Part shown: piece by piece, positions 7,303 through 44,758 of the stretch
How the letters are laid out: the number at the start of each line of letters is the position of its first letter
Numbering within the stretch: the stretch's first letter is position 1
DNA from: a virus
Strand: one strand, 5' to 3'
Length of the DNA: 55,127 bases
IMG/VR virus record: IMGVR_UViG_3300045988_100944
Translations under genes and position numbers: made by a program
Notes under the pieces: model-generated
What the model was told of the DNA's origin: nothing
Database searches by the model: none
The model's input: only the letters and a program-made list of their open reading frames with translations

Positions 7303-7336
7303 CCCTGCACCGAAAAAAGTGCAGGGTCAATTTTTT
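7303..7336. terminator. Bidirectional intrinsic terminator
   Basis: CCCTGCAC/GTGCAGGG stem flanked by A-run and T-run. Confidence 0.8.
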
Positions 7337-7704: not shown

Positions 7705-8019
7705 GTGAATTATGGGGTAAAACCGGGGCAATGTATATCGAATCTTAAATCCGAGTTATGCCGCGAGATGCTTCTAAAGGGGTGGAGCGTTGCGCAGCTT
7801 TCCATCCAGTGCGATTTATCATACAAGGCTATGTATAATATCATCAATGAGGAACCGGAAGATATGCGGCTTTCCACGTTCGTTAGAATCTGCGACAATG
7901 TCGGTATATCTCTGGTAAAAGTTCTGGAAATTTCCAATTCGGAAATTATTGACGATGGGCTGTCCAAGGCTCTCATCACTTGTGGCGGCAATCGTTACAT
8001 ATTGAAACGAATATTTTAG
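7705..8019 (+). CDS. XRE-family HTH protein (second)
   Basis: LLKGWSVAQLSIQCDLSYKAMYNIINEE...FVRICDNVGISLVKVLE; GTG start. Confidence 0.7.
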   Translation: MNYGVKPGQCISNLKSELCREMLLKGWSVAQLSIQCDLSYKAMYNIINEEPEDMRLSTFVRICDNVGISLVKVLEISNSEIIDDGLSKALITCGGNRYILKRIF

Positions 8020-8025
8020 GATTGA

Positions 8026-8055
8026 GGGGCTTTTATTAGCCCCCTTTCCTTTTTA
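8026..8055. terminator. Terminator shared by convergent genes
   Basis: GGGGC/GCCCC stem then CTTTCCTTTTT. Confidence 0.6.
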
Positions 8056-8724: not shown

Positions 8725-8850
8725 TTCGATAACCTCCTTTATTTATTATTGCCAAAAGGAGGTATACAGTGCTATACTTTATATACACTCCTTATGGCGT
8801 GCGGTGGCAACTGTTATTGATTGGTAGTCTGTGGCAGTTACCGCCTTTTT

Positions 8851-9027
8851 TTATTTGTTTCTTTGGTTGTACTGAATTTCAATCCCCTGCCTAATTATTT
8901 TAGACCTGTCAGAATTTTGTTCAGCAGCTAAATAATCTAATTTTTCTACCGTCTCCTTATCCATTCTAACTTGAATTAACTTGTTTTTTGGATTATCCGT
9001 TATCTTTTGTCCCATCTTAGGCGACAT
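8851..9027 (-). CDS. Ribbon-helix-helix (CopG/Arc/Mnt-like) protein, 58 aa
   Basis: Own translation MSPKMGQKITDNPKNKLIQVRMDKETVEKLDYLAAEQNSDRSKIIRQGIEIQYNQRNK; below ORF-track cutoff. Confidence 0.65.
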   Translation of the reverse strand: MSPKMGQKITDNPKNKLIQVRMDKETVEKLDYLAAEQNSDRSKIIRQGIEIQYNQRNK

Positions 9028-9049
9028 TTTCCATCACCACCCTTCAATT

Positions 9050-9093
9050 TGTAATTACATTTTCATTTTAACTTTGTAATTACATTTTGTCAA
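9050..9093 (-). promoter_or_regulatory. Promoter of RHH gene with two TGTAATTACA palindromic operators
   Basis: TTGACA (9093-9088), 17 nt, TAAAAT (9070-9065); palindromes at 9050-9059 and 9075-9084. Confidence 0.6.
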
Positions 9094-9114
9094 GTGTTTT
9101 CTTAAAATTTTCCA

Positions 9115-9143
9115 AAAGAAAAAGCACCGCTTTTCTGCGATGC
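9115..9143 (-). terminator. Intrinsic terminator ending the moron cassette
   Basis: Minus strand GCATCGC/GCGGTGC stem then TTTTTCTTTT. Confidence 0.7.
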
Positions 9144-9188
9144 TCATTCTCTATTGCTTTTTATTCTTTTTCTTTTTTGATTCTATCC

Positions 9189-9749
9189 TTATTCCGTAAT
9201 TTCCATGTAAACAGCTTTCACACAAGGGATTGTTATAGACTGCCCCAAAATACTTGTATATTTATACTCCCCTGCTGATTCGCCGTAGAATGTTACAATA
9301 TCATCTTCAAGGAATTTTCCATCCTTGTTGTCTGGGCTGAGCTTTACAAACACATTATCATCCCATAAACCGTAATCACCTTCCGTAACAGGAATCAAAT
9401 ATTCGGAAGTGCTACTGTCAGAATCTTTCACGACCTGCCTAATTTGTCCGCGGAACTTCACTTTCTGCCCTTCGTATTCGTCTGGTTTCCTTGCCAAATC
9501 ATCATAGGAAACATCTATGCACTCAGACTTGTACTGCTCAGGCGAAATATTTTCTGAATCGTCTTTTTTCCCTGAACCATCTCCGCCGCCAATCGAAGCA
9601 ATCGCAATAATAATTAAAAAAATCCATGCAATAATAAATTTCAACTTACCGCCTTGCTTTTTCCGACAATTCGGGCAAATCTTAGCTTTTTTCGGAATAT
9701 CTGACTGGCAATGTTTGCACTTTTTTACTTCATTTTCTTTGTTTTCCAT
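9189..9749 (-). CDS. Zinc-ribbon / TM / extracellular-domain membrane protein
   Basis: Trimmed to MENKEN behind AAAGGAG; CKHC...CPNC, TM FIIAWIFLIIIAIASIG, beta-rich C-domain. Confidence 0.7.
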   Translation of the reverse strand: MENKENEVKKCKHCQSDIPKKAKICPNCRKKQGGKLKFIIAWIFLIIIAIASIGGGDGSGKKDDSENISPEQYKSECIDVSYDDLARKPDEYEGQKVKFRGQIRQVVKDSDSSTSEYLIPVTEGDYGLWDDNVFVKLSPDNKDGKFLEDDIVTFYGESAGEYKYTSILGQSITIPCVKAVYMEITE

Positions 9750-15911: not shown

Positions 15912-15982
15912 GCACCAGTAGTTTAATGGCAGAACATCAGCCTTCCAAGCTGAATAAACGGGTTTGATTCCCGTCTGGTGCT
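15912..15982 (+). tRNA. tRNA-Gly (UCC)
   Basis: Hand-folded cloverleaf: acceptor GCACCAG/CTGGTGC, anticodon arm TCAGC-CTTCCAA-GCTGA, T arm ACGGG-TTTGATT-CCCGT (T-loop non-canonical). Confidence 0.7.
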
Positions 15983-16165
15983 TTTCATCGGATTTTTGGA
16001 CATTTTTCCCGATGAATAACACGACCTTTCACCCGCTAGGGGAATCCTGTTAAGAGCCATCGCACGGCTCGGTGGGTTTTTGGCTTGTATGCCGATGGGG
16101 ACTGGCAACAAGACCAAACACCAACTTCATATTTGGGGCGTTTTAACGGCATCACGCCCCACTCT

Positions 16166-16239
16166 GGATTCTTAGCTCAGTTGGTCAGAGCATCCGGCTC
16201 ATAACCGGACGGTCCTCGGTTCGAGTCCGAGAGAATCCA
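16166..16239 (+). tRNA. tRNA-Met (CAU), elongator type or Ile2 (lysidine)
   Basis: GGATTCT/AGAATCC acceptor, TAGCTCAGTTGGTCAGAGC D arm, TCCGG-CTCATAA-CCGGA, CTCGG-TTCGAGT-CCGAG. Confidence 0.9.
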
Positions 16240-16593
16240 TTTGCGGTCTTTCGGTATCATGGTTTATCGCAATCATTGGTTCTGCTGACTGACCGTATGA
16301 TTCGGGGTCGCTCCCCTCCGTGGAAATCGGACGGAACACAAACCGATAGGAATTGTGACACATCGGAGAGCAACGATGCGGGATGCTCAGGATGGCATCA
16401 ACAGGGTATGGACGCTACCAACATACTTGGAGTGATGAAAACTGCGTTCAAGTCAGTCCGTTTTGCTGGTTTCGTGACTGACATTAAACTCAAAACTGAA
16501 AAATCATGATGGGGATTGGATAGAAACTTGATTTAGGTGAGGTCGATTCGGATTTCACTATTAGAGATGGTGTCTTTTAAATCCCCATCCTCT
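16240..16593 (+). ncRNA. Candidate structured RNA between tRNAs (family unassigned)
   Basis: No credible ORF; many stems e.g. GTCAGTC 16452-16458 / GACTGAC 16476-16482, CCGAT/ATCGG, GATGC/GCATC. Confidence 0.3.
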
Positions 16594-16685
16594 GCCAACA
16601 TACCGAAACGGTTATAACGGCGTGGTCTTGAAAACCATTGTGTCGGTTAGAATCCGACATGGGGGTTCAAATCCCTCTGTTGGCG
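16594..16685 (+). tRNA. tRNA-Ser (UGA), class II
   Basis: GCCAACA/TGTTGGC acceptor, GTGGT-CTTGAAA-ACCAT, long variable arm GTCGG-TTAGAAT-CCGAC, GGGGG-TTCAAAT-CCCTC. Confidence 0.85.
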
Positions 16686-16705
16686 TTTGGGTTCACGATG
16701 AAAAC

Positions 16706-16816
16706 CTTACTCGCAACCTTATGGGTTAAAATCGTTGTAAAAATGCGTGCGCCGAAAGCATTCTTTTAGGTCTGCGATAAAGCGGGCCTACCCCGGGTTA
16801 TTAGCCTGCGAGTAGG
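16706..16816 (+). ncRNA. Candidate structured RNA closed by a 10-bp long-range helix
   Basis: CTTACTCGCA 16706-16715 pairs with TGCGAGTAGG 16807-16816; nested AATGC/GCATT and CGGG/CCCG hairpins. Confidence 0.3.
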
Positions 16817-16844
16817 CATAGGATAATTCAATTTTGAATTATGG

Positions 16845-16971
16845 TAGATGGTGGCGGAATAGGTAAACGCTTATATCTAAGAACTGATAGTGGTCGGGTA
16901 CAATATCGTACGGAGGACGCTGATAGGAATGCGGTTCATGTGTGGTGCAAATCCACACCCATCTAAGAGGT
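16845..16971 (+). ncRNA. Oversized tRNA-like element (about 127 nt)
   Basis: TAGATGG/CCATCTA acceptor-like, TG + GCGGAATAGGTAAACGC class-II D arm, GTGTGG-TGCAAAT-CCACAC T-like arm; no canonical anticodon arm. Confidence 0.3.
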
Positions 16972-17029
16972 CTGGTCGCACCAGAATAGAGTGTTGGTTG
17001 CGTAAATCCCACTTGAATTAAAAAAATGC

Positions 17030-17076
17030 CGATGGCAGATTGGATGTACCCCTTTCTGCCTATCGGAAACGCACAA
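17030..17076 (-). terminator. Minus-oriented terminator in a plus-strand region
   Basis: Minus strand CCGATAGGCAGA/TCTGCCATCGG stem then CATTTTTTT. Confidence 0.55.
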
Positions 17077-17119
17077 GTTATCCCGATTATTTGATTGAAA
17101 ACGAAAGGCGGTGTTTGCA

Positions 17120-17365
17120 ATGGCACAAGGCGTAAAAACCATAAGCAAGAGAAAATTCTTTGAAGCGTTTGAGGCGTTCTGTAGCGGACGGATGACACTT
17201 TCCAAAGCCGCGAGATATATCGGCATCAGCGTGCCTACTGCCTCTAAATATTTCAACATGTACATAAAGGGAGAACCATTTCCAGATACACTATTTGTGG
17301 ATGAAGACCGTCAAAATCGACTTGAACAGTCTGAGAAATATGACCGCAGACTATTCGGCAAGTGA
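17120..17365 (+). CDS. Small HTH protein
   Basis: Trimmed to MAQGVK; MTLSKAARYIGISVPTASKYF. Confidence 0.55.
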   Translation: MAQGVKTISKRKFFEAFEAFCSGRMTLSKAARYIGISVPTASKYFNMYIKGEPFPDTLFVDEDRQNRLEQSEKYDRRLFGK

Positions 17366-17406
17366 TAACGAATGATGAATATTTGCGATTTAAGGAGTTG
17401 TGAACA

Positions 17407-17682
17407 ATGAAACACAAAGAAGAATGGTACGTTTGTGATAGGTGCGGCAATAAATTTGACAGGCTCCCGCAAGATAAAATTTGGCTTACAAGAATGAAAA
17501 TGAACCATGAAGAATTTAAAGCGATATACGAAGAAACTGAGGGGTATATTTCAGATAAACATGAGCTAACAGGCGGTGTTTTATCTGTTGAGATAGAGGT
17601 ACGCTCCAGAAGAAGAGAAAAAATAATTCACTTATGCCCGAAATGCAGGAAAGATTTTGAGAGGTTTATGAACAATGAATAA
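17407..17682 (+). CDS. Zinc-ribbon protein (91 aa)
   Basis: CDRCGNKF ... CPKCRKDF; AAGGAG RBS. Confidence 0.6.
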   Translation: MKHKEEWYVCDRCGNKFDRLPQDKIWLTRMKMNHEEFKAIYEETEGYISDKHELTGGVLSVEIEVRSRRREKIIHLCPKCRKDFERFMNNE

Positions 17683-17818
17683 CTGCGATTTCATAACTTG
17701 CAGATACAACAAAGACGGTAAATGTAACGATATTGATAACCGAAAAGAATGTGTTAAAGTCGCAAGACTGGTATTATGCAAGGATTTTGCCTATGAGAGA
17801 GAAATCAATAACAGGTAA
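17675..17818 (+). CDS. 47-aa Cys-rich peptide
   Basis: Own translation MNNCDFITCRYNKDGKCNDIDNRKECVKVARLVLCKDFAYEREINNR. Confidence 0.35.
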   Translation: MNNCDFITCRYNKDGKCNDIDNRKECVKVARLVLCKDFAYEREINNR

Positions 17819-17978
17819 ATACATAGGAAACGCCATAGGATACTGTCACTGTAAGGCTCATGCTGGTGCGTTGAACAAGGAACTTGCTTACAAGCATAAA
17901 TGTATTGCTAAACGGTGTAAATGGCTTGAGAAGTACAATGATGAGGCGTGGAGAAGGAAAGAAAGGTATGTGAGATAA
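17793..17978 (+). CDS. Small Cys/His-rich protein
   Basis: ORF track 17733..17978 trimmed to MREKSITGKY...CHCKAH...CIAKRC. Confidence 0.4.
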   Translation: MREKSITGKYIGNAIGYCHCKAHAGALNKELAYKHKCIAKRCKWLEKYNDEAWRRKERYVR

Positions 17979-17981
17979 TTT

Positions 17982-18063
17982 GCAGTCATGGCGTAATGGT
18001 ATCGTAGCGGATTGCTAATCCGTCCGTCAAAATGATGTGTAGGTTCGATTCCTACTGACTGCG
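17982..18063 (+). tRNA. tRNA-Ser (GCU), class II
   Basis: GCAGTCA/TGACTGC acceptor, GCGGA-TTGCTAA-TCCGT, variable arm CGTCA-AAA-TGATG, GTAGG-TTCGATT-CCTAC. Confidence 0.85.
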
Positions 18064-18078
18064 TCAAGGAAGGAGAGT

Positions 18079-35560: not shown

Positions 35561-35934
35561 AGGATTTTTTAGATAGAATCCCAACCCAGGTAGGGCGGAG
35601 AAAAATCACCCATGCGGACGGGACAAGCGAATATGTAACGTTTGAAATGGCGGACGAACCTTCTGTAGAGGGTACGCCATTAAACAGAGAAGCCTTCATG
35701 AACGTGCAGGGATTTTCTAATGAAGACACTACTATCAGCAAATCAGGTAATGTAACCACAGTTACAATAACGCATGGCGATGGTGGTAAAACTGTTACAA
35801 TAATTACAAAGAACTCAAGTACACTAACTACTGTAGTATCTAAGTATACCGGACCCTCAGGTAAAGAAATCACGAAAACTACTACAATAGATACTAGTAG
35901 CTCAGTAACAAGGATTGGAGGTGTTGTATCATGA
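35557..35934 (+). CDS. Tail fibre-region protein, T/S-rich
   Basis: Coupled ORF; TTVTITHGDGGKTVTIITKNSSTLTTVV. Confidence 0.45.
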   Translation: MKDFLDRIPTQVGRRKITHADGTSEYVTFEMADEPSVEGTPLNREAFMNVQGFSNEDTTISKSGNVTTVTITHGDGGKTVTIITKNSSTLTTVVSKYTGPSGKEITKTTTIDTSSSVTRIGGVVS

Positions 35935-36641
35935 GTTGGGATGTAGGTTCATGGGTAATTGACACAGTTAATTCAGTATTAAGTACTCTAATTCAAGCAC
36001 ATGGTACACAGACCTTTACCGAGGATGGCACGTTTACCGTTCCTGCTGGTGTGCATAAGATTTTGATAACGGCGGCGGCTGGTGGTCAGGCAGGAAATAC
36101 CGGAAGAGATTTTGGTAATTCAAGCAAAGTCTATTCCGGAGGGCTTGGTGGAAACGGCGGAGATTGTATTCTTAAAAAAACGTTTAACGTAACGCCGGGG
36201 CAGGAGATTTCAATTATTGTCGGAAAGGGCGGAACAACTTCTGGAGCAATCGGAAGTGCGACTGTGATAGGCTCTTTAGTTACACTGGCAGGCGGCAACA
36301 ATACTAATAATGGTTCTAATAATGGCGGCGGAACTGGTGGAAGAGGAGGCATTTACTGGGGTGGTTCCGGAGATATTTTACTGCCAGTGCCGGGGCAGGA
36401 CGGTTTATTAGGTTCGGGAGGCGGAATTGCTACAATAGGTACAAATTCTGGTTCTGGTAATGCATATGGAGGCGGTGGAGGCGGCTCGATAGGAAATGGC
36501 GGAAATGGAGCGGTTTCTACTAACGTAGAAGAAAATGTAGGCGTGAATGGCACTATGGGTGGCGGTGGTGGTGGCGCGCACAACCATGGCGGCTCAGCAT
36601 TTGGCAAAGGCGGAGATGGTATTGTAATTATCGAATGGTGA
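35931..36641 (+). CDS. Glycine-rich tail fibre/receptor-binding candidate
   Basis: GGLGGNGG, GGGTGGRGG, GGGGGSIGNGGNG runs. Confidence 0.6.
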   Translation: MSWDVGSWVIDTVNSVLSTLIQAHGTQTFTEDGTFTVPAGVHKILITAAAGGQAGNTGRDFGNSSKVYSGGLGGNGGDCILKKTFNVTPGQEISIIVGKGGTTSGAIGSATVIGSLVTLAGGNNTNNGSNNGGGTGGRGGIYWGGSGDILLPVPGQDGLLGSGGGIATIGTNSGSGNAYGGGGGGSIGNGGNGAVSTNVEENVGVNGTMGGGGGGAHNHGGSAFGKGGDGIVIIEW

Positions 36642-37403: not shown

Positions 37404-37697
37404 ATGGCAAGAAAAATGGAAACGAGCAAGAAACTTGTTTACATATCTGATTTTGTAGCAATCTGCCTGAGTGCGGCGGTTATATATGGTACTTTCGTCA
37501 CAGAGAAAGATATATCTCCGCTGGCACAGGTGGCGGTTGCATCAATTACAGAGTGTGGCGTTGCAAACGGTTTCTACTATTGGAAATCGAAAAATGAAAA
37601 CAGGTACAAATATGTTATCAAGTTGATTCGTGAATGGGCTGAAAAATACGGCATTGAAGCCGTTATCCGTATTGCTGATATTGTATTGAAAGAATGA
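37404..37697 (+). CDS. Holin candidate (2 TM)
   Basis: LVYISDFVAICLSAAVIYGTF and LAQVAVASITECGVANGFYYW; upstream of lysin. Confidence 0.55.
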   Translation: MARKMETSKKLVYISDFVAICLSAAVIYGTFVTEKDISPLAQVAVASITECGVANGFYYWKSKNENRYKYVIKLIREWAEKYGIEAVIRIADIVLKE

Positions 37698-37712
37698 AAG
37701 GAGATGTAGAAA

Positions 37713-38066
37713 GTGGGTAAGATTACATTCTTAATGGAAAACTGGTATTTGGTGGTTGCGCTGATGGCGGTCACAGGGATGGTCGGTGTATTTATCGGGC
37801 GTTTTCTGAAAATGCCGACAGCGGCACAGAGAGAAAAAGTAAAAGAATGGTTGCTGTGGGCGGTCACACAGGCAGAAGCAGAGTTGGGGAGCGGAACAGG
37901 CAAGCTGAAATTGCGGCAGACCTATGATTTATTCGTGCAGAGATTCCCTGCGGTTGCTATGGCGGTATCATTTGACACCTTCTCTATGTGGGTGGATGAA
38001 GCACTGGAAGAAATGCGAAAAATGCTGAAAGAAAACAAGGCAGTCAAAGAGATTGTAAAGGGATGA
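37713..38066 (+). CDS. Holin, LL-H-like family
   Basis: N-terminal TM WYLVVALMAVTGMVGVFIG then ...AEAELGSGTGKLKL. Confidence 0.6.
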   Translation: MGKITFLMENWYLVVALMAVTGMVGVFIGRFLKMPTAAQREKVKEWLLWAVTQAEAELGSGTGKLKLRQTYDLFVQRFPAVAMAVSFDTFSMWVDEALEEMRKMLKENKAVKEIVKG

Positions 38067-38070
38067 TTAT

Positions 38071-38703
38071 ATGGCGAAAAAGATGACGGGCAAAGAACTG
38101 GTAGCCTTTTGCCGTTCTAAAATCGGCACGAATTATGTTTATGGTATGAAAGGCTCTGTAATGACAGAAGCCAACTACAACTATCTGAAAAACAAATACG
38201 GTAAGATGGTATGGAATAGTGACAGAAAGAAAATCGGGAAGGTCTGCGTAGACTGCTCTGGTCTGATTTCATGGGCGTGTGGCGTAAAACTCGGCAGTAC
38301 CCAATGGAAAGAACGAGCAAAAAGCGTCAATCCGATATCAACCATCGAAAAAGCACCCATCGGGGCGTTAGTCTGGATGCAGGGGCATATCGGGGTATAC
38401 ACAGGCATGAAGAACGGCTACCCCTACTACATAGCTGCTGACGGCTCTGCTTACGGCGTGCGAGAAGTCCCCCTGCGGTGCAATAAATTCACGCACTGGT
38501 TGCTTGTAAATGATGTTTTCGACTACGGAACGGAGGATGAAGAAGTGGTAGAGAAGTGCAAGATTATCATTGATGGAAAGGAACACGAAACAGAACGCAT
38601 TTTGAAGGATGGCACTAACTATATCAAGATTCGGGATGTGGCAGACGCTATCGGCTACAACATCACAAGCAAGGGCAGTATTGCGGTGCTGACGAAAAAA
38701 TAA
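38071..38703 (+). CDS. Endolysin: NlpC/P60 peptidase + copper-amine-oxidase-N-like wall-binding domain
   Basis: CVDCSGLISWACG ... GHIGVYTG catalytic Cys/His; C-terminal KIIIDGKEHETERILKDGTNYIKIRDVADAIGYNI. Confidence 0.85.
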   Translation: MAKKMTGKELVAFCRSKIGTNYVYGMKGSVMTEANYNYLKNKYGKMVWNSDRKKIGKVCVDCSGLISWACGVKLGSTQWKERAKSVNPISTIEKAPIGALVWMQGHIGVYTGMKNGYPYYIAADGSAYGVREVPLRCNKFTHWLLVNDVFDYGTEDEEVVEKCKIIIDGKEHETERILKDGTNYIKIRDVADAIGYNITSKGSIAVLTKK

Positions 38704-38782: not shown

Positions 38783-38817
38783 GGGAGTATATCAATTTCG
38801 GTATACTCCCTTTTTTT
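38783..38817. terminator. Bidirectional terminator between lysis cassette and accessory operon
   Basis: GGGAGTATA/TATACTCCC stem flanked by AAAAA and TTTTTTT. Confidence 0.8.
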
Positions 38818-39136
38818 ATGCTGTTTTCCGAATTTCCCCGACCATCATATCTACCATATCGAAAACTTCATCCCCATAAGTAGCCACGAAGTCACATAAA
38901 AATTCCTCCTGTTCCAATGGGATATGTATGTTATAGGACATACAGACTGCGTGGCATAATTCGTGTATCAGTACCTTCCTCTTAAAGCCGCCTACAAGCC
39001 GATTTGAAAGGCAAATACAGTGAGTAGTGTTATCGGTCACGCCGGCCGTAAAACTCCCGTCAGAGCGGCGCAGGCAGTCTGAGGATGGCGCAACCGAAAC
39101 AACACTCCATTTCACGCAATTTATCTCGAATACCAT
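38816..39136 (-). CDS. Accessory operon gene H: HExxH (ImmA/IrrE-like) metallopeptidase
   Basis: Trimmed to MVFEINC behind GGGGGTGA; VLIHELCHAVCMSYN. Confidence 0.6.
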   Translation of the reverse strand: MVFEINCVKWSVVSVAPSSDCLRRSDGSFTAGVTDNTTHCICLSNRLVGGFKRKVLIHELCHAVCMSYNIHIPLEQEEFLCDFVATYGDEVFDMVDMMVGEIRKTA

Positions 39137-39192
39137 TCCATCACCCCCGATTAAAAAAGATAGGGGCAAGATAACCCCTATCCTATTTTGCA

Positions 39193-39855
39193 TCAGCCGA
39201 TTTTCTGCAACAGTGTTGTCATTTTGGCTTTCAACAGAGTACGTTCTTCTGGTGTCATATCCGAAAGAATCTCTGTCACATCACCAGAAAGCTCTTTCAT
39301 GTATGCTTCAAGGTCGCGCATCTTCTGCTCTTTATCAGCCTGTGAATTGCCCCTGTGCATTTCCTTACTTTCTGTATAGTGGCGTTTCGCTTTATCGTAG
39401 CCGCTCATCATGGGTTCGGTGTAGTACATTCTGCCGCCCATACGGTCTAAATCCCTGCCCCGCTCTGCTTCACTCTTGCTATCCCATTCGTGATACATAT
39501 CGGGTGTCTGGAAGTAGTAAGGCGGTTCTGTATATCCTCTGCGTGTTCCTCTGCCCTTTGGTGCAAATCGACCGTCAGCGTATCTGTAATGGTCGTAGAA
39601 ACGCCTGTCTCCGTCCTCGTAGTATTCGGATTTCAACCGCCTAAGGATTTCCTTATCTTCTTCTTCGTCCTCTTTCTCTGCTTTCTGCATAGCTTTTGTA
39701 ATGACCGCTTTATATTCGGCATCGTTTAAGTCTTTAATCATGTCAACAACCTGTCCCATTTCGGCGGTATCAACACATTCCAGACCGCTTTCCATTTCGG
39801 ACCATGCCTTTTCGCAAAGACACTCAATCATTTTGTGCATTCTCTCAATGTGCAT
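39193..39855 (-). CDS. Accessory operon gene G: highly charged R/Y/E/D-rich protein
   Basis: 220 aa; GGAGGTG RBS; no recognisable family. Confidence 0.7.
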   Translation of the reverse strand: MHIERMHKMIECLCEKAWSEMESGLECVDTAEMGQVVDMIKDLNDAEYKAVITKAMQKAEKEDEEEDKEILRRLKSEYYEDGDRRFYDHYRYADGRFAPKGRGTRRGYTEPPYYFQTPDMYHEWDSKSEAERGRDLDRMGGRMYYTEPMMSGYDKAKRHYTESKEMHRGNSQADKEQKMRDLEAYMKELSGDVTEILSDMTPEERTLLKAKMTTLLQKIG

Positions 39856-39858
39856 AAA

Positions 39859-40263
39859 TTATTCACCTCCGCCAGTTGTTGCAGGGGCACTTTCTCCGTT
39901 GATAGCAGATAACCTGTTATCGGGAGTACAGCAAGTTTCCCCTATCATTCTGAAAAATCCAGAATTGTTCGTTGTCTCAACTACGGTTTTGTATCTGGTT
40001 CTTGTTCTCAAGCCAGATGCCACAACCTGTCTGCAATTACGTTTCATAAGCGGATACTGAACAGCCCCACCGCCAATCGTAATAAAAACAGGAGCATTGA
40101 TTGTAGTGGTATCGGGGATTTTCTGTGCCACCACAATACAAACTTTTCGGCAGTCGGCATAACTGCCTGCGGGTAAATCTATAATCAGATTTCCACCTGT
40201 AAAATTCACTGACTGCGACATAATGAAATTATCGCAAAGTCGGCACACATTCTTACAAGCCAT
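39859..40263 (-). CDS. Accessory operon gene F: beta-rich Cys-bearing protein
   Basis: 134 aa; AGGAGGTG RBS; CKNVCRLC N-terminus, CC near C-terminus. Confidence 0.7.
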   Translation of the reverse strand: MACKNVCRLCDNFIMSQSVNFTGGNLIIDLPAGSYADCRKVCIVVAQKIPDTTTINAPVFITIGGGAVQYPLMKRNCRQVVASGLRTRTRYKTVVETTNNSGFFRMIGETCCTPDNRLSAINGESAPATTGGGE

Positions 40264-40316
40264 AAAATAACACCTCCTAAAAAATTAAGGGTAGACTTCT
40301 GCCTACCCTCTTTGTA

Positions 40317-40535
40317 TCAACCACTGCGGGCGAAGTCTGATTTAATATCAGATAGCATTTTTAGTATTTCCTTCTGGTCTTTCATTATCTTATCCAGATA
40401 ATATCCATCCTGCCTATGCAATTCTTTCAGTAGCGTATCATTCGATACCTGTTGGCAAGTCACAAGCTGCAAAAACACAGACAGGATGGTAAGCATATCT
40501 AAATAAGATAACCCTTTATTTTGATTGTCTGTCAT
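40317..40535 (-). CDS. Accessory operon gene E: TM + coiled-coil small protein (BhlA/UviB-like architecture)
   Basis: ATG in TGATG overlap with gene D stop; LSYLDMLTILSVFLQLVTC then helix. Confidence 0.55.
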   Translation of the reverse strand: MTDNQNKGLSYLDMLTILSVFLQLVTCQQVSNDTLLKELHRQDGYYLDKIMKDQKEILKMLSDIKSDFARSG

Positions 40536-41323
40536 CAGCAACCACAACCGCAACCGTTACCATATCCAGAATAAGGATAAGGGGCAGGAACGTTATACGC
40601 AGGTACAGGCATAGGGTTGATTCTTCTAATCAATTCCGCTGTCTGTGCCTCCTGATTTGCTGTAATGTATGCGTTCTGTGCGGACTGGGATGCAGCAAGC
40701 TCCAGCTTCTGAACCTTGTCTCTCAAATCCGCATTTTCCTTAGCACACAGGTAGTCGAGGATTGCTCTTGTTCCTGCGTTCTGGTTGTCGATAATGTCTC
40801 TGGTGTTTGTGTTCATTGTGTTCTGCAATGCACACGTATCCTGAGCCATATCGTATCTTGCCTGAGCGATTGCTTCTCTGTTCTGACAGCAGCAATCCGC
40901 AAGCTGTTCCTGTAATGCGTTCTGGCTCTGCATCAGAGCAACATTAGTTGTATTGAACCCCTGCTGTGTCTGGTATCCAAAATTGCAGATAGCATTATCA
41001 ACGCTATGGAAACCGTTCATCAAGGTTGTGTTCTGTGCATAGAAACCATCACACATACCGTCGGAAATACCGTCCAGTTTGCCAATGATAGACTGTGTAT
41101 CGAAGCCTCTCTGAATATCCGCCTGTGTGGCTGCCGTTGCTACATAGCCGCCACCATTACCGCCGAAACCGCCGAAACCGTTATTACCCCATCCAAAAAG
41201 CAAGGCAAAAACTACGATTATCCACAGCCAGCCGCCATCGCTGAACGCACCGTCATTGCCATAACCGCCAGTTGCCGGCATTACAGGCATAGTAAAAGGT
41301 GTATTGTTTGTAGAGTTGAACAT
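40535..41323 (-). CDS. Accessory operon gene D: Gly-rich/TM (YjcZ-like segment) protein with N/Q-rich Cys-containing ectodomain and GCGCGC tail
   Basis: Trimmed to MFNSTNN behind AAAGGAGG; GGWLWIIVVFALLFGWGNNGFGGFGGNGGG. Confidence 0.7.
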   Translation of the reverse strand: MFNSTNNTPFTMPVMPATGGYGNDGAFSDGGWLWIIVVFALLFGWGNNGFGGFGGNGGGYVATAATQADIQRGFDTQSIIGKLDGISDGMCDGFYAQNTTLMNGFHSVDNAICNFGYQTQQGFNTTNVALMQSQNALQEQLADCCCQNREAIAQARYDMAQDTCALQNTMNTNTRDIIDNQNAGTRAILDYLCAKENADLRDKVQKLELAASQSAQNAYITANQEAQTAELIRRINPMPVPAYNVPAPYPYSGYGNGCGCGC

Positions 41324-41397
41324 ATTAGATTCCTCCTTTTGAATTTTTTTCATAAAGAGGCACCTAGGTTTTTTGCGCGCAAACCTCTAATATGCGA

Positions 41398-41628
41398 TTA
41401 CATACCAAACTTGTTTTTTATTTGTTGCATTATTTCGTCAGGGTTTACCCCTTTCTCTTTGCAGAGGTTTCTTGCCATCTGCTCTACGCCTTTGGCATCC
41501 CCCTTCTGCATCATATCAATGGCATTTTTCGCCATAGGGTTTCCCATCACTTGACTATTGTTCATCATGCTCTGTAAAAATTGTTGCGGGTTTCTTATAC
41601 CGCCAAGGAGTTGAAATAAATTCTTCAT
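41398..41628 (-). CDS. Accessory operon gene C: M/Q/N-rich helical protein
   Basis: 76 aa; ATGA overlap with gene B stop. Confidence 0.6.
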   Translation of the reverse strand: MKNLFQLLGGIRNPQQFLQSMMNNSQVMGNPMAKNAIDMMQKGDAKGVEQMARNLCKEKGVNPDEIMQQIKNKFGM

Positions 41629-42134
41629 TCTGCATCCGCCTTTCTTTTGGTCGATTGTGTACTGGATTTTGAAGCGGTTTTATTTACGGAGAGTTCCAAC
41701 TGTTCTAATCTTTCAGACAGTTCATCAAATCTATCCATGAAAGCTGTAACCGTACCTTCCGACAGTTCAAATTTGAGATTTTCTTGAATCTGAGCCGAAT
41801 TTTGAGGTGCAGTCTCATTTACTGGCTTGAAAGTTACGGTTTTAATCGTTCCGTCAGCGTTCCAAGACTTAGCAAATATTGCACTCATATCCTGCATCGG
41901 AAAGAACGCCGCCGAACCATCCATAGGCACATCATTTGCCGTTATCATTTCCACAGACTGCACCACGCGCCCATTTACGCCACGCGGCATCTGCTGTTGA
42001 AGCTGATTTACTGGCTGCACCTGTTCTATCTGCGGTTGCTGCATCCGCGTCTGTTGAAAGTATGGATTGTACCCATACTGCGGATATGCTTGCTGGATAT
42101 TATAGTTCATGCTCTGATAAGGATTTGGTTGCAT
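41625..42134 (-). CDS. Accessory operon gene B: Q/N/P/Y-rich low-complexity head + folded domain + coiled coil
   Basis: MQPNPYQSMNYNIQQAYPQYGYNPYFQQTRMQQPQIEQVQPVNQLQQQ; GAAGGAGGG RBS. Confidence 0.7.
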   Translation of the reverse strand: MQPNPYQSMNYNIQQAYPQYGYNPYFQQTRMQQPQIEQVQPVNQLQQQMPRGVNGRVVQSVEMITANDVPMDGSAAFFPMQDMSAIFAKSWNADGTIKTVTFKPVNETAPQNSAQIQENLKFELSEGTVTAFMDRFDELSERLEQLELSVNKTASKSSTQSTKRKADAE

Positions 42135-42264
42135 AGTCGATTCCCTCCTTCTCTAAAACCTCCTGCACCGCCCGAACCATAACGGACTGATAAGTAAGAG
42201 GTATCTTCATTACATCTTCACGACTGAAAATTTTTTCCAATACTTCATCCGAAAACATTTCCAT
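42100..42264 (-). CDS. Accessory operon gene A: 54-aa acidic helical protein
   Basis: ORF track 42100..42315 trimmed to MEMFSDE behind TAAGGAGG. Confidence 0.5.
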   Translation of the reverse strand: MEMFSDEVLEKIFSREDVMKIPLTYQSVMVRAVQEVLEKEGIDYATKSLSEHEL

Positions 42265-42292
42265 CAGCCTCCTTATAAATATATTTTCGCAT

Positions 42293-42324
42293 AAAAAAAG
42301 AGCCAAAAGTGTCATCTTTCGCTC
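42293..42324 (-). terminator. Hairpin + U-run between attP and accessory operon
   Basis: Minus strand GAGCGAAAG/CTTTTGGCTC (one mismatch) then TTTTTTT. Confidence 0.45.
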
Positions 42325-42365
42325 AACTTTCTGTCATATATTTTTTTGTTTTGTATGGGGCTTTT

Positions 42366-42405
42366 CTACACCAATCTTACACCACTACACCAATTTTACA
42401 CCAAT
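42366..42405 (+). repeat. Arm-type repeat cluster (3 good + 1 degenerate CTACACCAAT)
   Basis: 42366-42375, 42377-42385 (degenerate), 42385-42394, 42396-42405. Confidence 0.8.
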
Positions 42406-42626
42406 TTTCTAAAAATTATTCATTTGTTTTGAAAAGTTATTCAATGTTTATCTTTTTTGTATGAATTGCTCAAAACCGTTGAAAATAAAGTTATTAACAA
42501 TGTTTTTAAAGTTATAGCAAGATATTTTCATTTTGAATAAAAATTTCAATATCATTTCATTCCCAAAATGTATATACTTATTAAAAACATTGATAAAACA
42601 AGGTGTTCTATATGTATTTTTTATTT

Positions 42627-42648
42627 CTACACCAATTTCTACACCAAT
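42627..42648 (+). repeat. Arm-type repeat cluster (2 x CTACACCAAT), overlaps int stop
   Basis: 42627-42636 and 42639-42648, same orientation as left cluster. Confidence 0.8.
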
Positions 42649-43766
42649 TTTAAGTTTTTTTCTATTGCTTCGATTTCCTCCAGTTTGGATTCATCCGTTA
42701 CATGAACATACAAATTCATCGTCATTTCAATTTTGCTATGACCTAGGATTGCTTGCAGCGTTTTAGGGCGCATGCCACTTTCTATACATCTCGTAGCGAA
42801 TGTGTGCCTTAGCAAGTGAATTGAGAACTTTCTCATTCCCAATCTATTGCAAATAGCATATATTCCTTGATTATACGCTGACTTTTGAATTAGATTTCCG
42901 TTTTTGTTCAGAAAAATATAATCTGCATACTGGATTGGAATAATTTTGTTTTGAGAATTCTTCTCTTTTTGACTATATAAAATATTGACAGCTTCTTTTG
43001 TAAGCGGTATCTCCCGATGCCCGCTTTTTGTCTTTGGTTCTCCGATTACAAACCCTTGTTTCGCGACCTCCGATGCACTTCTCTGTATTTTTATTTTTCG
43101 ATTTTTAAAATCTACATCAGACCACTTTAACGCAATCAATTCTCCAACCCGAATCCCGGTTTGCAGCACAAACGCATATCCATTATAAAATGATGATTTT
43201 TCTGATTCTTTTAAGAAAGTTTTTTGCTCATCAACAGTTAGTGCTTCTCGCGCTTCTGTTTTTTTACCACCAGTTGCTTTCACATTCCTTCTTACAGGAT
43301 TTCTTTCTATTAAATAATTTTCGACAGCACATTCAAAAACACTCCACATTAAATCTCTATGCACCTTAATGGTAGATGTCTTATGCCCTTCATTCATCAT
43401 ATTTAGTACTTTCTGACAATGAATCGGCTTTACGTCTTTTAATTCCATATTCCCAATAATTGGAGAAATAGAAAAGCTCCACATACTTCTGTAGTTTCTT
43501 TCTGTTATAATTCTTATGCTATCTCCCTTTACTTCATTTATCCAGTAGTCAAACCACGCATCGACTGTTGGAGAGTCAGAAAAGAACACATCACCATGTT
43601 CATCCTCAAACTGCGCATCTGCCATCCATGCCCTGCACTCCTGCAACTTATGAAAGTATTTCTGTTTTCGTTTTCCAGATTTTGTTGTAAAACGTCCTGT
43701 ATACATTCCGTCTTTCCGTTGGCTGATACCAACGCCTAATTCTTTACCTCTAAGGTCTTTTCCCAT
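42639..43766 (-). CDS. int: Tyrosine integrase
   Basis: ORF track trimmed to MGKDLRGKELGVGISQRKDG; C-terminal HLLRHTFATRCIESG...LGHSKIEMTMNLYVHV. Confidence 0.92.
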   Translation of the reverse strand: MGKDLRGKELGVGISQRKDGMYTGRFTTKSGKRKQKYFHKLQECRAWMADAQFEDEHGDVFFSDSPTVDAWFDYWINEVKGDSIRIITERNYRSMWSFSISPIIGNMELKDVKPIHCQKVLNMMNEGHKTSTIKVHRDLMWSVFECAVENYLIERNPVRRNVKATGGKKTEAREALTVDEQKTFLKESEKSSFYNGYAFVLQTGIRVGELIALKWSDVDFKNRKIKIQRSASEVAKQGFVIGEPKTKSGHREIPLTKEAVNILYSQKEKNSQNKIIPIQYADYIFLNKNGNLIQKSAYNQGIYAICNRLGMRKFSIHLLRHTFATRCIESGMRPKTLQAILGHSKIEMTMNLYVHVTDESKLEEIEAIEKNLKLV

Positions 43767-43836
43767 CGTTACACACCCTTTCATTTTGAGAAAAGCCCCA
43801 TACAGCGTCATATTACCATACAGGGCTAATTTCTGT

Positions 43837-44238
43837 CTATATCTCAACAGTATTTTCAATAAACTTGTCAAATTCCTTTCGCTTAATGAGCTTTCTGTTC
43901 CCGTTTGTAAGGGCGAAAGTGCATCTTGGGTTATTCGCAAGTTTTCTGAGCGTTGCCGTTCCGATATTGCTATAGGCGGACGCTTCATCAATCGTCATTG
44001 TAACTTTCTGCCAAATCGGTACTTCTGGTTTCGACATATCCTCAATCCTTTCTATTTTCTTATAAATCTTCCTCAAAATGCGATTCACCGTAGATGATGA
44101 TATTTTCATCGTGTCCGCTATATAATCAATAGGGGAACCGTTACTGGACAGTTGAAATACCATCATCTCATCCTCGGTAAAATTGGCGTTCTCGATAATT
44201 TTTCGCAATTCTGGCTTTGTCAAATCTCGCAAAGCCAA
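43837..44238 (-). CDS. xis: Excisionase-type HTH fused to sigma-r4/LuxR-like HTH
   Basis: TTG start behind AAGGAGG; N: ADTMKISSSTVNRILRKI; C: MTIDEASAYSNIGTATLRKLANNP...LIKRKEFDKFIE. Confidence 0.7.
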   Translation of the reverse strand: MALRDLTKPELRKIIENANFTEDEMMVFQLSSNGSPIDYIADTMKISSSTVNRILRKIYKKIERIEDMSKPEVPIWQKVTMTIDEASAYSNIGTATLRKLANNPRCTFALTNGNRKLIKRKEFDKFIENTVEI

Positions 44239-44329: not shown

Positions 44330-44758
44330 TCAATCTGATTCAGATTCATCTTTCATACCACTATTGCAAACCACAGAAATAAATTTATCTACCCTTTTCT
44401 GCAATTCTGGCGGTAGATTTTCGTAAAAGCTAATTTCTTTGACTTGGTATCCACATCTTTCTTTCATTCTCTCCATAGCCTTGATGGCAAGAAATGCACC
44501 GTTGATAGCTACGTGATATGCAGCCGGCAGTCCGCTTTCCACGTCAAGAGCATCATGGTCTTTCTGGTAAGTAATCGTATGTCGCAGCAGAGCAGCTAAC
44601 AATCTATCATCAGAGATATTTCTCCATGCCTCAATTCCTTCCATACCGTATTTCTCAACGGCAAATTCGCGTACCCTTGCTAATGGCTCTAAAATCTCCA
44701 ATGGCACAAGGTTAAGCTGTGGTTTTCCTTCATCTGATTTTACGATTGGCGTTTTCAT
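44330..44758 (-). CDS. DUF5664-like (dATP/dGTP diphosphohydrolase N-terminal domain-like) protein
   Basis: DEGKPQLNLVPLEILEPLARVREFAVEKYG...AALLRH...DVESGLPAAYHVAINGAFL. Confidence 0.6.
   Translation of the reverse strand: MKTPIVKSDEGKPQLNLVPLEILEPLARVREFAVEKYGMEGIEAWRNISDDRLLAALLRHTITYQKDHDALDVESGLPAAYHVAINGAFLAIKAMERMKERCGYQVKEISFYENLPPELQKRVDKFISVVCNSGMKDESESD

Follow-up and report, generated by a model that had tools for sequence, protein, structure and literature searches.

Phage genes for lysogenic conversion normally sit next to attP and the integrase gene, convergent with the late genes, and known exclusion systems include single-protein ones. In Tn916, transcription can run from the excision and integration genes across the attachment site only in the excised, circular form. 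Among described proteins, the distal domains of tail fibres and the minigluzincins resemble individual parts of the locus studied here, and the C-terminal knobs of BclA-type proteins (PMC12357932) resemble an alternative to one of these parts in other phages. For the locus as a whole, however, we found no described counterpart: every PHROG that matches its eight genes is listed as of unknown function, and literature searches for the family names were negative. Here, we show that these genes are one copy of a very common, mobile gene cassette of gut viruses to which no database or searched paper assigns a function, and which probably builds a membrane-anchored, cysteine-rich, fibre-like structure in infected cells.

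Results

The window, i.e. the whole stretch of 55,127 nucleotides of the virus IMGVR_UViG_3300045988_100944, contains eight co-directional minus-strand genes (A to H) between the lysis cassette and attP/int (Table 1). The observation made in the preliminary description thus holds: all eight open reading frames exist, the reported composition of the proteins is correct, and the ATGA overlap (B/C) and the TGATG overlap (D/E) are present. Moreover, A and B overlap by 35 nt, and GGAGG-type ribosome-binding sites precede A (AGGAGG), B, D, F and G, with a weaker one in front of H. Start sites were refined from the ribosome-binding sites and the N-termini of homologues. The implied TGATG start of H at 39193 is a spurious N-terminal extension, since all H homologues start at MxF(x)INGxxW. 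The genes are real: dN/dS against close relatives is 0.00-0.22 for every one of the eight (the range listed for A alone is 0.00-0.24), indicating purifying selection, and all eight are conserved in synteny at 38-76% identity in distant phages. The block is, however, not one uninterrupted operon, because three stable terminator-like hairpins followed by U-runs split it into A-E, F-G and H. The surroundings are as described, with a convergent lysis cassette and an AT-rich gap with repeats between int and A (GC 0.33 in 42001-43000). No minus-strand terminator was called between int and A; a weak hairpin plus U7 just upstream of A is not significant.

Table 1. Features of the module and its surroundings in the window
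Feature	Coordinates	Strand	Length (aa)	Description
Lysis cassette	37404-38703	+		Two holin-like membrane-protein ORFs without Pfam hit; endolysin with a weak, sub-threshold NlpC/P60 match
Terminator	38783-38810	.		Bidirectional, shared with the lysis cassette; -15.5 kcal/mol, z -6.3; A-run and U-run on either side
H	38816-39136	-	106	Soluble zincin, minigluzincin-like; HELCH plus an invariant EE 15-16 residues downstream; accessory peptidase slot
Hairpin plus U-run, G/H	39157-39184	-		Intrinsic-terminator-like; -19.9 kcal/mol, z -3.8
G	39193-39855	-	220	Core slot; N- and C-terminal helical segments flank a highly variable R/Y/D/E/G-rich low-complexity centre with the motif [DN]GR[FY]AP[KR]
F	39859-40263	-	134	Core slot, type F1; Cys-rich beta-sandwich (predicted), N-terminal MACKxxCxLC and C-terminal CC motifs; resembles a fibre knob
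Hairpin plus U-run, E/F	40287-40310	-		Intrinsic-terminator-like; -16 kcal/mol, z -4.3
E	40317-40535	-	72	N-terminal hydrophobic helix plus coiled coil; BhlA/UviB-like architecture; accessory slot
D	40535-41323	-	262	Core, hallmark; acidic N-tail, Trp-flanked TM helix (GGWLWIIVVFALLFGWG), Gly-rich linker, long N/Q/A/T-rich coiled coil with invariant Cys (C91, CCC144-146, C164), Pro-rich segment, CGCGC tail
C	41398-41628	-	76	Core; Met/Gln/Asn-rich helical protein
B	41625-42134	-	169	Core; Q/N/P/Y-rich low-complexity head, conserved ~50-aa beta-rich domain, coiled-coil helix, basic tail
A	42100-42264	-	54	Acidic helical protein; accessory slot that co-occurs with H
attP-like gap	42316-42650	.		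AT-rich; ATTGGTGTAG direct repeats, 2 copies at about 42650-42620 and 4 at about 42405-42355, probable arm-type Int/Xis sites; module promoter or read-through path
Integrase	42639-43772	-		Tyrosine integrase, Tn916-like N-terminal DNA-binding domain; start codon uncertain
HTH-Xis	43837-44238	-		Regulator fused to excisionase; sigma-70 region 4/LuxR(GerE)-type HTH (res 19-63), Tn916-type Xis (res 72-130)

A search for the block as a syntenic unit had been proposed beforehand, with the reading to be given up if the genes never co-occurred outside this genome. They do co-occur, and far outside it. Iterated profile searches (jackhmmer) revealed a colinear module with the invariant order [sigma-r4/LuxR HTH]-[A]-B-C-D-[E]-F-G-[small peptidase] in 161 loci from prophages and phages of Lachnospiraceae, Oscillospiraceae, Negativicutes and C. 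perfringens, and in Butyrivibrio phage Ceridwen. D was found in all 161 loci, B in 151 and G in 121-124. C is present in 102 loci and an alternative type, C2, in 52, with no overlap between the two sets; the two types align with shared NP..Q..M and GK.P motifs. F1 is present in 74 loci and the alternative F2 in 80. H is found in 62 loci, and in 61 others a papain-like protein (x2) with a Cys-His-Asp triad is present. A occurs in 58 loci, almost always together with H, and E in 48, whereas an analogous TM plus coiled-coil protein (tm2) is present in 29 others. The conserved unit is the core B-C-D-F-G rather than the eight genes, and an upstream HTH gene had been missed. This gene belongs to the sig2 family, which lies upstream of the module on the same strand in 105 loci and matches the PHROG 'RNA polymerase sigma factor' at 2e-6; in the window, it matches Pfam GerE (1.5e-5) and Tn916-Xis (2.6e-18). 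Here, the integrase (Pfam Phage_integrase 1e-31, Phage_int_SAM_3 2.4e-8, Integrase_DNA 6.6e-4) is inserted between the HTH gene and A, whereas in locus L113 the HTH gene directly abuts A, and in Dulem virus 39 a serine integrase occupies the same place. Reduced forms of the module occur in crAss-like and Bacteroides phages, and D alone in viruses assigned to gut methanogens (Methanomassiliicoccales). The D family comprises at least 8000 clusters at 90% identity and 2,339 clusters at 50% identity, all of 93-340 aa and with no fusions among the best 150.

The preliminary description had also named confident profile or structure hits to known families as the result that would speak against it. 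No Pfam, NCBIfam, PADLOC or functional PHROG annotation fits, and the proteins match no structural, lysis, replication or defence family. A has no family hit and E no Pfam hit. B matches phrog_21718 (1e-8; the flavour-2 member scores 8e-37) and D phrog_16490 (5e-63), both of unknown function. No relative was found in the PDB for B, either as the whole protein or for its beta-rich domain alone, for D or for G; the only PDB hit of C is a de novo designed helical protein, which we disregard. In G, the structured part is elsewhere replaced by DUF7841 (PF25223) while an R/Y-rich region is kept. For H, in which H58, E59, H62, E77 and E78 are invariant, profile hits were obtained to selecase MJ1213 (4QHJ, E 1.4e-3), projannalysin and IrrE, in addition to phrog_1233 (4e-12) and sub-threshold Pfam matches to Peptidase_M78 and SprT-like at 1e-3. 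The AF2 model of F has eight strands but only moderate confidence (pLDDT 62, pTM 0.55). A Foldseek search of BFVD with this model matched domains of tail-fibre, collagen-repeat and tail-collar proteins (E 1e-4 to 1e-2, TMq 0.40-0.49); these are predicted structures, and there was no match in the PDB. The alternative F2 matches the F-BclA C-terminal knob 9H38 (E 1.6e-4; PMC12357932) and, weakly, BclA, whereas the F of the window is not of the BclA type.

The genomic position of the module is variable. It lies inside head-gene operons in loci L047 and L128, in other phages at the 3' end of late operons, co-oriented with lysins and tail genes, and in C. perfringens and Bacteroides phages in the early region. 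Upstream neighbours are co-oriented in 97 of 118 cases, and the annotated ones are mostly endolysins, minor capsid protein 2 and tail-fibre proteins. In several prophages, the module is located at the prophage end, after holin-endolysin and next to host genes or a convergent integrase. In phages that are otherwise 96-100% identical, D (79%), F (swapped to F2) and G (77%) were exchanged together. None of A, B, C, F, G or H has a hydrophobic N-terminus. Across 114 D homologues, the N-tail is acidic, with fewer K+R than the C-side (0.5 against 1.1 per 30 residues).

Discussion

The interpretation given in the preliminary description is supported only in part. The genes belong together and look like self-associating and membrane-anchored proteins plus a protease, but they are not a random set of morons. 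The idea of a spore-surface assembly is not supported and, in our view, very unlikely. F2 relatives do match BclA-type C-terminal domains, many hosts are Clostridia, and Cys- and Tyr-rich low-complexity proteins plus a maturation protease recall coat assembly. However, the module or its core occurs in phages of Dialister, Phascolarctobacterium and Bacteroides (including crAss-like phages), hosts that do not form spores, and D alone in Methanomassiliicoccales viruses; moreover, there are no Pfam hits to coat, Ena or exosporium families, and the window's own F is not of the BclA type. This idea is already largely refuted by host range.

Two further explanations deserve consideration, although both are doubtful. 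The module might be a lysogenic-conversion or superinfection-exclusion cassette expressed from the prophage under its own HTH regulator, in which D and its partners would block DNA entry or adsorption by related phages or change the host surface, with the swappable knob F as the specificity determinant. This would fit the position next to attP/int, the own terminators, the dedicated HTH gene, the membrane proteins D and E, and the swapping of F types, which resembles the diversification of specificity determinants. A purely lysogenic-conversion role is weakened, however, by the presence of the module in phages reported or expected to be non-lysogenic (Ceridwen, seen only in lytic growth, and crAss-like phages), by its location inside head-gene operons and by its co-orientation with late genes in most loci. 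Moreover, five to eight conserved genes, four of them cytoplasmic with no export signal, are unlike known single-protein exclusion systems, and no PADLOC family fits. Somewhat less likely still, the module might encode an accessory virion appendage, with D trimerising into a coiled-coil fibre, F as its distal knob, and B and G as attachment or decoration proteins, which would serve adhesion or stability in the gut and thus not depend on the host. The fold predicted for F and the similarity of F2 to the BclA knob, the annotation of D homologues in crAss-like genomes as 'spike protein/glycoprotein' or 'outer capsid protein/viral fiber', and the frequent location within or at the end of structural operons are in favour of this idea, and the spread across gut viruses of Bacillota, Bacteroidota and archaea fits a function tied to the environment more than to the host envelope. 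On the other hand, D has a bona fide Trp-flanked TM helix, which is unusual for a fibre of a tailed phage, no baseplate- or capsid-attachment domain was detected, and the module lies in early regions in C. perfringens and Bacteroides phages and on the early strand here. It also accompanies viruses with very different tails: the window phage has a 1,251-aa ORF in its tail region, the longest in the window and a probable tape measure protein (not tested), cr53_1 belongs to the Crassvirales, and BFVD homologues of F come from contigs named Myoviridae, Podoviridae and Siphoviridae.

What our comparisons demonstrate is a horizontally mobile, slot-structured phage module: its order is fixed across about 160 loci, the slots C, F, G and the peptidase are each filled by alternative, unrelated or very distant protein types, and it moves between genome positions and between virus lineages. 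All that concerns assembly, timing and role is inferred. The only enzyme-like match in the module is the peptidase slot, and we therefore suggest, tentatively, that the product is a self-assembling structure on the inner face of the cell membrane. In this model, D is a bitopic membrane protein with its short acidic N-tail facing out and its roughly 200-residue Cys-bearing coiled coil and Cys-X-Cys tail facing the cytoplasm, a topology that rests on a weak charge bias. F, which lacks a signal peptide, would cap or decorate this stalk, the low-complexity regions of B and G would glue the assembly together, C would be a small Met/Gln-rich helical partner that may shield hydrophobic or low-complexity segments, and H, or the papain-like protein in other phages, would trim a component. 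The joint exchange of D, F and G suggests an interacting set, but no interaction between any two components was tested, and there are no expression, localisation or phenotype data for any member. The locations in other phages suggest that the structure is made during lytic development. In this phage, transcription probably enters the module from the HTH-Xis-Int operon across attP, which is possible only in the excised circular genome; this is the logic of Tn916, which was not tested here, and the weak hairpin upstream of A could stop such read-through. It has to be considered that in the window the module is convergent with the late genes and next to attP/int, where lysogenic-conversion genes normally sit, and that the timing may differ between phages given the variable position. 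Since the window carries its own lysis cassette, the module is not needed for basic lysis. Although the role itself is not established, the structure most likely acts at the membrane late in infection, either in the control of lysis or egress or in shielding the infected cell.

Organization of the locus

The eight minus-strand ORFs reported in the preliminary description are present, and the observation as such holds. Based on the positions of the ribosome binding sites in the sequence and on the N-termini of homologous proteins, the coordinates of the genes were refined. Gene H does not begin at the TGATG at position 39193. The ATGA overlap between genes B and C and the TGATG overlap between genes D and E are real, and so are the GGAGG-type sites. 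All eight genes evolve under purifying selection: dN/dS is 0.00-0.22 against relatives whose dS is not saturated. However, the block is not one seamless operon, since three stable hairpins with U-runs are located after E, after G, and after H (z -4.3, -3.8, and -6.3, respectively), and it therefore reads A-E, F-G, and H. Holin-like genes and an endolysin gene converge on the block, and a gene for a tyrosine integrase lies upstream, beyond an AT-rich gap that carries ATTGGTGTAG repeats. This decamer and near copies of it are repeated four times upstream of gene A and twice at the 3' end of int, thus bracketing the gap; they are probably arm-type Int/Xis binding sites around attP.

Features of the window and of related loci in other genomes.
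Genome	Feature	Coordinates	Strand	Length or description
window	A	42264-42100	-	54 aa
window	B	42134-41625	-	169 aa
window	C	41628-41398	-	76 aa
window	D	41323-40535	-	262 aa
window	E	40535-40317	-	72 aa
window	F	40263-39859	-	134 aa
window	G	39855-39193	-	220 aa
window	H	39136-38816	-	106 aa
window	holin-like genes and endolysin	37404-38703		weak, sub-threshold NlpC/P60 match of the endolysin; no Pfam match of the holin-like genes
window	tyrosine integrase	42639-43772	-	Tn916-like
window	ATTGGTGTAG repeats, four copies	42355-42405		upstream of gene A
window	ATTGGTGTAG repeats, two copies	42620-42650		3' end of int
window	HTH-Xis fusion	43837-44238	-	GerE/sigma-r4-type HTH fused to Tn916-type Xis
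window	PF18909 protein	44330-44758	-	142 aa; dATP/dGTP diphosphohydrolase N-terminal domain (MazZ-like), 3.7e-16
window	four tRNA genes	15912-18065	+	Gly-tcc, Met-cat, Ser-tga, Ser-gct; just upstream of the terminase region
window	Gly_rich_2 (PF21722) domain protein	35931-36641	+	distal end of the tail-gene region, followed by small unknown ORFs before the holins
L243, crAss-like phage cr53_1 (NC_055889)	related module	2844-5488		
L244, Bacteroides phage C3_41T2LP	related module	3653-6898		
L245, Caudoviricetes sp. vir335	D-family protein	4632-5555		phrog_16490
L092	PF25223 (DUF7841) in the G slot	7189-7839		
L105	PF25223 (DUF7841) in the G slot	7077-7865		
L137	PF25223 (DUF7841) in the G slot	4145-4612		
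L068	inserted Cys-rich ORF	6894-7736		
L081	inserted Cys-rich ORF	8834-9676		
L161, Butyrivibrio virus Ceridwen	inserted Cys-rich ORF	7340-8134		

For the MazZ-like protein, the presence of other genes of a modified-base pathway was not checked.

The proteins match no family of known function

The preliminary description had named two outcomes that would speak against its proposal: confident hits placing most of the ORFs in known tail-fibre, lysis, or housekeeping families, or a failure of the genes to co-occur outside of this genome. Neither was observed. Profile searches with all eight proteins against Pfam, NCBIfam, and PADLOC gave nothing above threshold, only sub-threshold hits for H and coiled-coil noise for D (the ZorA tail and phage_tail_N). 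The PHROG collection places D in phrog_16490 (5e-63), B in phrog_21718, and H in phrog_1233, and all three are annotated as "unknown function". The counterparts in other phages also fall in PHROGs of unknown function. Profile searches of the PDB were negative for B, including its beta-rich domain alone, as well as for D, G, the papain-like protein x2, and a DUF7841 protein, whereas C hit only a de novo designed protein, "Gogy", which we disregarded. The D family is very large: at least 8000 clusters at 90% identity were scored, and an exhaustive HMM search found 2,339 clusters at 50% identity, all of them stand-alone proteins of 93-340 aa.

The genes are part of a conserved, mobile module

To study the distribution of the genes, we collected 80 viral contigs through D and 79 species-representative genomes through a D profile, and performed iterative searches over all their ORFs. 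Pairwise tblastn and shallow hhalign comparisons did not link the window proteins to a second group of phages, but the jackhmmer search over 161 loci linked B and G, although not C to C2 or F to F2. These searches revealed one colinear architecture, [HTH]-[A]-B-C-D-[E]-F-G-[peptidase], in which several slots are filled by alternative proteins.

Occupancy of the slots of the module in 161 loci.
Slot	Loci (of 161)	Remark
D	161	selection marker for the loci
B	151	
G	121-124	15 of the 105 downstream neighbours scanned carry an R/Y-rich DUF7841 protein in this slot
C / C2	102 / 52	two types, no overlap
F / F2	74 / 80	two types, no overlap
H / x2	62 / 61	zincin, or a Cys-His-Asp papain-like protein
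A	58	travels with H
E / tm2	48 / 29	E, or another TM plus coiled-coil protein
HTH (sig2)	105	sigma-70 region 4/LuxR-type, upstream on the same strand

In the window, the HTH is the N-terminal half of a protein that is fused to a Tn916-type Xis (GerE 1.5e-5, Tn916-Xis 2.6e-18), whereas in other phages it stands alone as a 66-80-aa protein at the head of the module. An integrase gene separates this HTH from A in the window. In Dulem virus 39 a serine integrase occupies the same place, and in locus L113 the HTH abuts A directly. PF25223 (DUF7841) fills the G slot in one flavour of the module, i.e. in loci L092, L105, L137, and 12 others, usually joined to an R/Y-rich low-complexity region, and this region rather than the folded domain seems to be the constant feature of the slot. 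Cys-rich ORFs of 264-280 aa are inserted inside some modules (loci L068, L081, and Ceridwen), between D and F2 or between F2 and G. They look like selfish insertions, but they could not be identified: the two that were tested, those of L068 and Ceridwen, have no Pfam match. Near-identical relatives of the window phage (L035/L036 = L179/L180; IMGVR_UViG_3300029198_000002 and 3300045988_078747) have the central part of the module exchanged: D drops to 79% and G to 77% identity, F is replaced by the BclA-like F2, and E is lost, while A, H, the lysin, and int stay at 96-100%. This joint replacement argues that D, F, and G co-adapt.

Hosts and genomic positions

The module is found in prophages of Lachnospiraceae, Oscillospiraceae, Acutalibacteraceae, Ruminiclostridium, Erysipelotrichaceae, Bacilli, and Negativicutes, the latter represented by an isolate genome of Dialister and a contig of Phascolarctobacterium with flanking host genes. 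Cultured phages carry it as well: Butyrivibrio virus Ceridwen has HTH-x2-B-C2-D-F2-[inserted ORF]-G, and this phage has been seen only in lytic growth and is judged probably virulent (PMC7372960). C. perfringens phages such as vB_CpeS-17DYC have B-C-D-F-E and a G-like gene in the early region. Reduced versions are present in other groups of viruses. In the crAss-like phage cr53_1, the order is holin, LysB-like, DUF7841 with an R/G/Y-rich tail, and then D, F, and a protein with B-like architecture, and Bacteroides phage C3_41T2LP has D, an F-like protein, B, a 77-aa R/D/Y-rich protein, DUF7841, and an H-like zincin. In these Bacteroidota phages, the proteins annotated as "spike protein/glycoprotein" or "outer capsid protein/viral fiber" are D homologues (E about 1e-41), and the protein annotated as "RNA polymerase sigma factor/ubiquitin-like" is a DUF7841 protein with an R/G/Y-rich tail. 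The cr53_1 sequence shows in-frame stop codons, which indicates stop-codon reassignment. D alone occurs in viruses assigned to Methanomassiliicoccales: the D-family protein of Caudoviricetes sp. vir335 has the TM helix and CCC motifs but lacks the Cys tail, and there is no recognisable B, C, F, or G nearby.

The position of the module in the genome varies. It is located after holin-endolysin at the prophage end, after tail fibres, between minor capsid protein 2 and the scaffold/major capsid genes, or in early regions. The upstream neighbours are co-oriented in 97 of 118 cases, and the commonest annotated ones are endolysin domains, minor capsid protein 2, tail-fibre proteins, and recombinases. 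In three prophages, AgrB-like genes (PF04647, accessory gene regulator B) appear among the two genes upstream of the module. Plasmids essentially lack the module, as a plasmid search found only one prophage-like hit.

Features of the individual proteins

D has an acidic N-tail, a Trp-flanked hydrophobic helix, a Gly-rich linker, and an N/Q/A/T-rich coiled coil with invariant Cys residues including a CCC motif, followed by a Pro-rich stretch and a Cys-X-Cys tail. The flanking charges across 114 D homologues weakly favour an N-out/C-in topology. B has a variable Q/N/P/Y-rich head, a conserved beta-rich domain of about 50 residues, a coiled-coil helix, and a basic tail. G has helical ends around a very variable R/Y/D/G-rich centre, and C and C2 are small Met/Gln-rich helical proteins. 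None of A, B, C, F, G, and H has a signal peptide or a hydrophobic N-terminus. The only enzyme-like match in the module is the peptidase slot.

The window-type F profile gives no BclA hit, and its best hits are pilins at E 0.3. An AF2 model of F based on 32 close homologues reached a pLDDT of only 37, whereas a second model with eight strands reached 62. Foldseek found no match for this model in the PDB (best E 0.2), but in BFVD it matches its own uncharacterised homologues and then domains of proteins annotated as tail fibre, T7 tail fibre, tail-collar fibre, collagen triple-helix repeat, or hyaluronidase (E 1e-4 to 1e-2, TMq 0.40-0.49). These matches are to predicted structures, and we draw no conclusion as to whether the predicted beta-sandwich of F superposes on solved knob structures. 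The profile of the alternative F2 matches the crystal structure 9H38 over its full length (E 1.6e-4) and BclA weakly (0.1-0.4). 9H38 is the C-terminal knob of F-BclA, which forms the distal tip fibrillum of Bacillus F-ENA spore appendages (PMC12357932). Both slot fillers therefore look like fibre knobs.

H is a soluble HExxH protein in which H58, E59, H62, E77, and E78 are invariant in 16 diverse homologues, and it thus has the third-ligand Glu in the distance that is expected for minigluzincins and M78 (ImmA-IrrE) zincins, i.e. about 15-25 residues downstream in a domain of roughly 100 aa. Its profile hits selecase MJ1213 at E 1.4e-3 over about 70 residues and IrrE at 0.2, and Pfam Peptidase_M78 scores 19.3 bits against a cut-off of 22, values that neither secure nor exclude an assignment to a family.

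Comparison with known systems

Individual parts of the module resemble known proteins, but the whole corresponds to no described system. For the BclA and F-BclA C-terminal knobs of the Bacillus exosporium and F-ENA fibres (PDB 9H38, 1WCK; PMC12357932), the resemblance concerns F2, which like exosporium proteins has no signal peptide and sits among Cys-rich, self-assembling partners. However, there is no collagen-like stalk and no exosporium-targeting N-terminus, and the hosts include bacteria that do not form spores. Membership of F in the endospore appendage subunits was considered because of its Cys motifs, and was rejected: F and F2 have no Pfam hit at E<=1 and E<=0.1, respectively, and thus no DUF3992 (S-Ena) or DUF4183 (F-ENA) domain, and there is no PDB hit to 7A02 or F-ENA. 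The N-terminal motif MACKxxCxLC of F is only a resemblance. As compared to the distal domains of phage tail fibres and collagen-repeat fibre proteins, F is a free-standing protein rather than the end of a long fibre, and it is encoded away from the tail genes. With spore-coat morphogenesis the analogy is in the working principle only, i.e. assembly on the cytoplasmic face of a membrane from low-complexity, Cys/Tyr-rich proteins without export signals and with a dedicated small protease, as we infer it for the module. No homology to any coat protein was detected, there is no ATPase such as SpoIVA, and the module is not restricted to spore formers.

H shares its size and motifs with the minigluzincins selecase MJ1213 and projannalysin and with the M78/ImmA-IrrE zincins, and the H family HMM matches the "PolyVal metallopeptidase superfamily" gene next to the module in Bacteroides phage C3_41T2LP (4.5e-6). 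In contrast to ImmA/ImmR, there is no partner repressor, and no substrate is known. E has the architecture of the BhlA/UviB holin-like proteins, an N-terminal TM and a C-terminal coiled coil in about 70 aa, but there is no Pfam hit to Holin_BhlA or any other family at E<=1, and the only matches are weak PHROGs of unknown function. D shares with the i-spanins of the lambda Rz or P2 LysB type an N-terminal TM, a long coiled coil with conserved Cys, and a Pro-rich C-terminal part, and it often lies next to lysis genes; in cr53_1 it is two genes downstream of holin and a LysB-like gene. A spanin reading of D was nevertheless rejected, since there is no sequence match, no Pfam or PHROG lysis annotation, and no o-spanin lipoprotein among A-H, most hosts are monoderm Clostridia and need no spanin, the charge bias suggests that the coiled coil is cytoplasmic, and cr53_1 already carries a separate LysB-like gene. 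Similarly, a Zorya-like reading was rejected: D matches only the coiled-coil tail of ZorA (E 1.6e-3 to 8e-3) and has a single TM rather than the 4-TM MotA-like domain, and the other seven proteins have no meaningful hit to PADLOC models (C alone matches Csx1 at E 0.023). The idea that the module replaces a lysis cassette was rejected for this window, which has holin-like genes and an endolysin of its own.

Finally, the region upstream of the module resembles the regulatory and recombination end of Tn916 (orf7 sigma-like, xis, int). A sigma-r4/LuxR-type HTH, a Tn916-type Xis, and a tyrosine integrase with a Tn916-type N-terminal domain (Phage_integrase 1e-31, Integrase_DNA 6.6e-4, the latter weak) lie in this order directly upstream of attP and the module on the same strand, with no called terminator before A. 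In the window, the HTH and Xis are fused into one protein, and in most other phages the HTH gene abuts the module with no integrase between them.

Interpretation

What our analysis demonstrates is a real, widespread, mobile, and slot-structured module. The assembly, timing, and role of its product are conclusions that we draw by inference. We propose that the module builds a self-assembling structure that is anchored in the cytoplasmic membrane by D, with F acting as a knob, B and G as low-complexity glue, and C as a small partner, and that this structure is made during lytic development. The timing is inferred from the co-orientation of the module with late genes in most loci, and from its presence in phages that are reported or expected not to lysogenise. 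In the window, the order HTH-Xis-Int-attP-module without a called terminator before A suggests read-through that can occur only in the excised circle. This is established for Tn916 but an inference here, as transcription across the joined ends was not measured, and a weak hairpin plus U7 upstream of A is a caveat. Within this model, which we regard as tentative, we prefer a late membrane-level role in the control of lysis and egress or in shielding the infected cell.

The preliminary interpretation, an envelope- or spore-surface-associated assembly or a lysogenic-conversion or exclusion device, is thus supported only in part. A role in lysogenic conversion or superinfection exclusion is less likely than our model, but it is favoured by the position in this window: the module lies next to attP/int and ends at a bidirectional terminator, and in several prophages it is the last block before host genes. 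On the other hand, the module is not restricted to temperate phages, since it is also present in Ceridwen, in crAss-like phages, and inside head operons; expression from the prophage was not examined. An accessory virion fibre, which we regard as somewhat less likely still, is favoured by the fold resemblances and by the spread across host domains. A spore-directed role is contradicted by the host range, and we consider it very improbable.

It is tempting to speculate further, although we consider this less likely than not, that the B-C-D-F-G cassette encodes a previously unrecognised kind of virus-built cellular structure: a membrane-anchored, thiol-rich, low-complexity fibre or matrix that gut viruses of Bacillota, Bacteroidota (including crAss-like phages), and possibly methanogenic archaea assemble late in infection. 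Because it is shared across hosts with unrelated envelopes and seems confined to anoxic gut habitats, it may serve a function that is set by the environment and not by the host. This might be a redox- or oxygen-triggered cross-linked coat, or membrane-vesicle tethering, that protects or clusters progeny virions during transit, or else a generic membrane-level egress or exclusion device.

The families already exist in databases as PHROGs of unknown function and one DUF (PF25223), but literature searches for phrog_16490, DUF7841, and the crAss "spike/ubiquitin-like/sigma" block returned nothing, and we found no paper that treats them as a unit. We therefore regard the module as lying outside known kinds of system, with the caveat that its function is unknown and that it may yet prove to be an unusual exclusion or lysis-accessory device. 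The module recurs in prophages of dominant human-gut Clostridia, in cultured C. perfringens, Butyrivibrio, and Bacteroides phages, which make experiments possible now, and in crAss-like phages, yet every component is annotated as "hypothetical", as a PHROG of unknown function, or as a DUF. Our work gives these genes a shared context, with a fixed slot order, interchangeable slot fillers, and a dedicated HTH regulator, and this turns a heap of orphan genes into one testable unit. If the product is a new virus-made membrane structure, it would bear on how gut phages lyse, exclude rivals, or survive transit. It would also improve the annotation of a large share of the "dark matter" of the gut virome.
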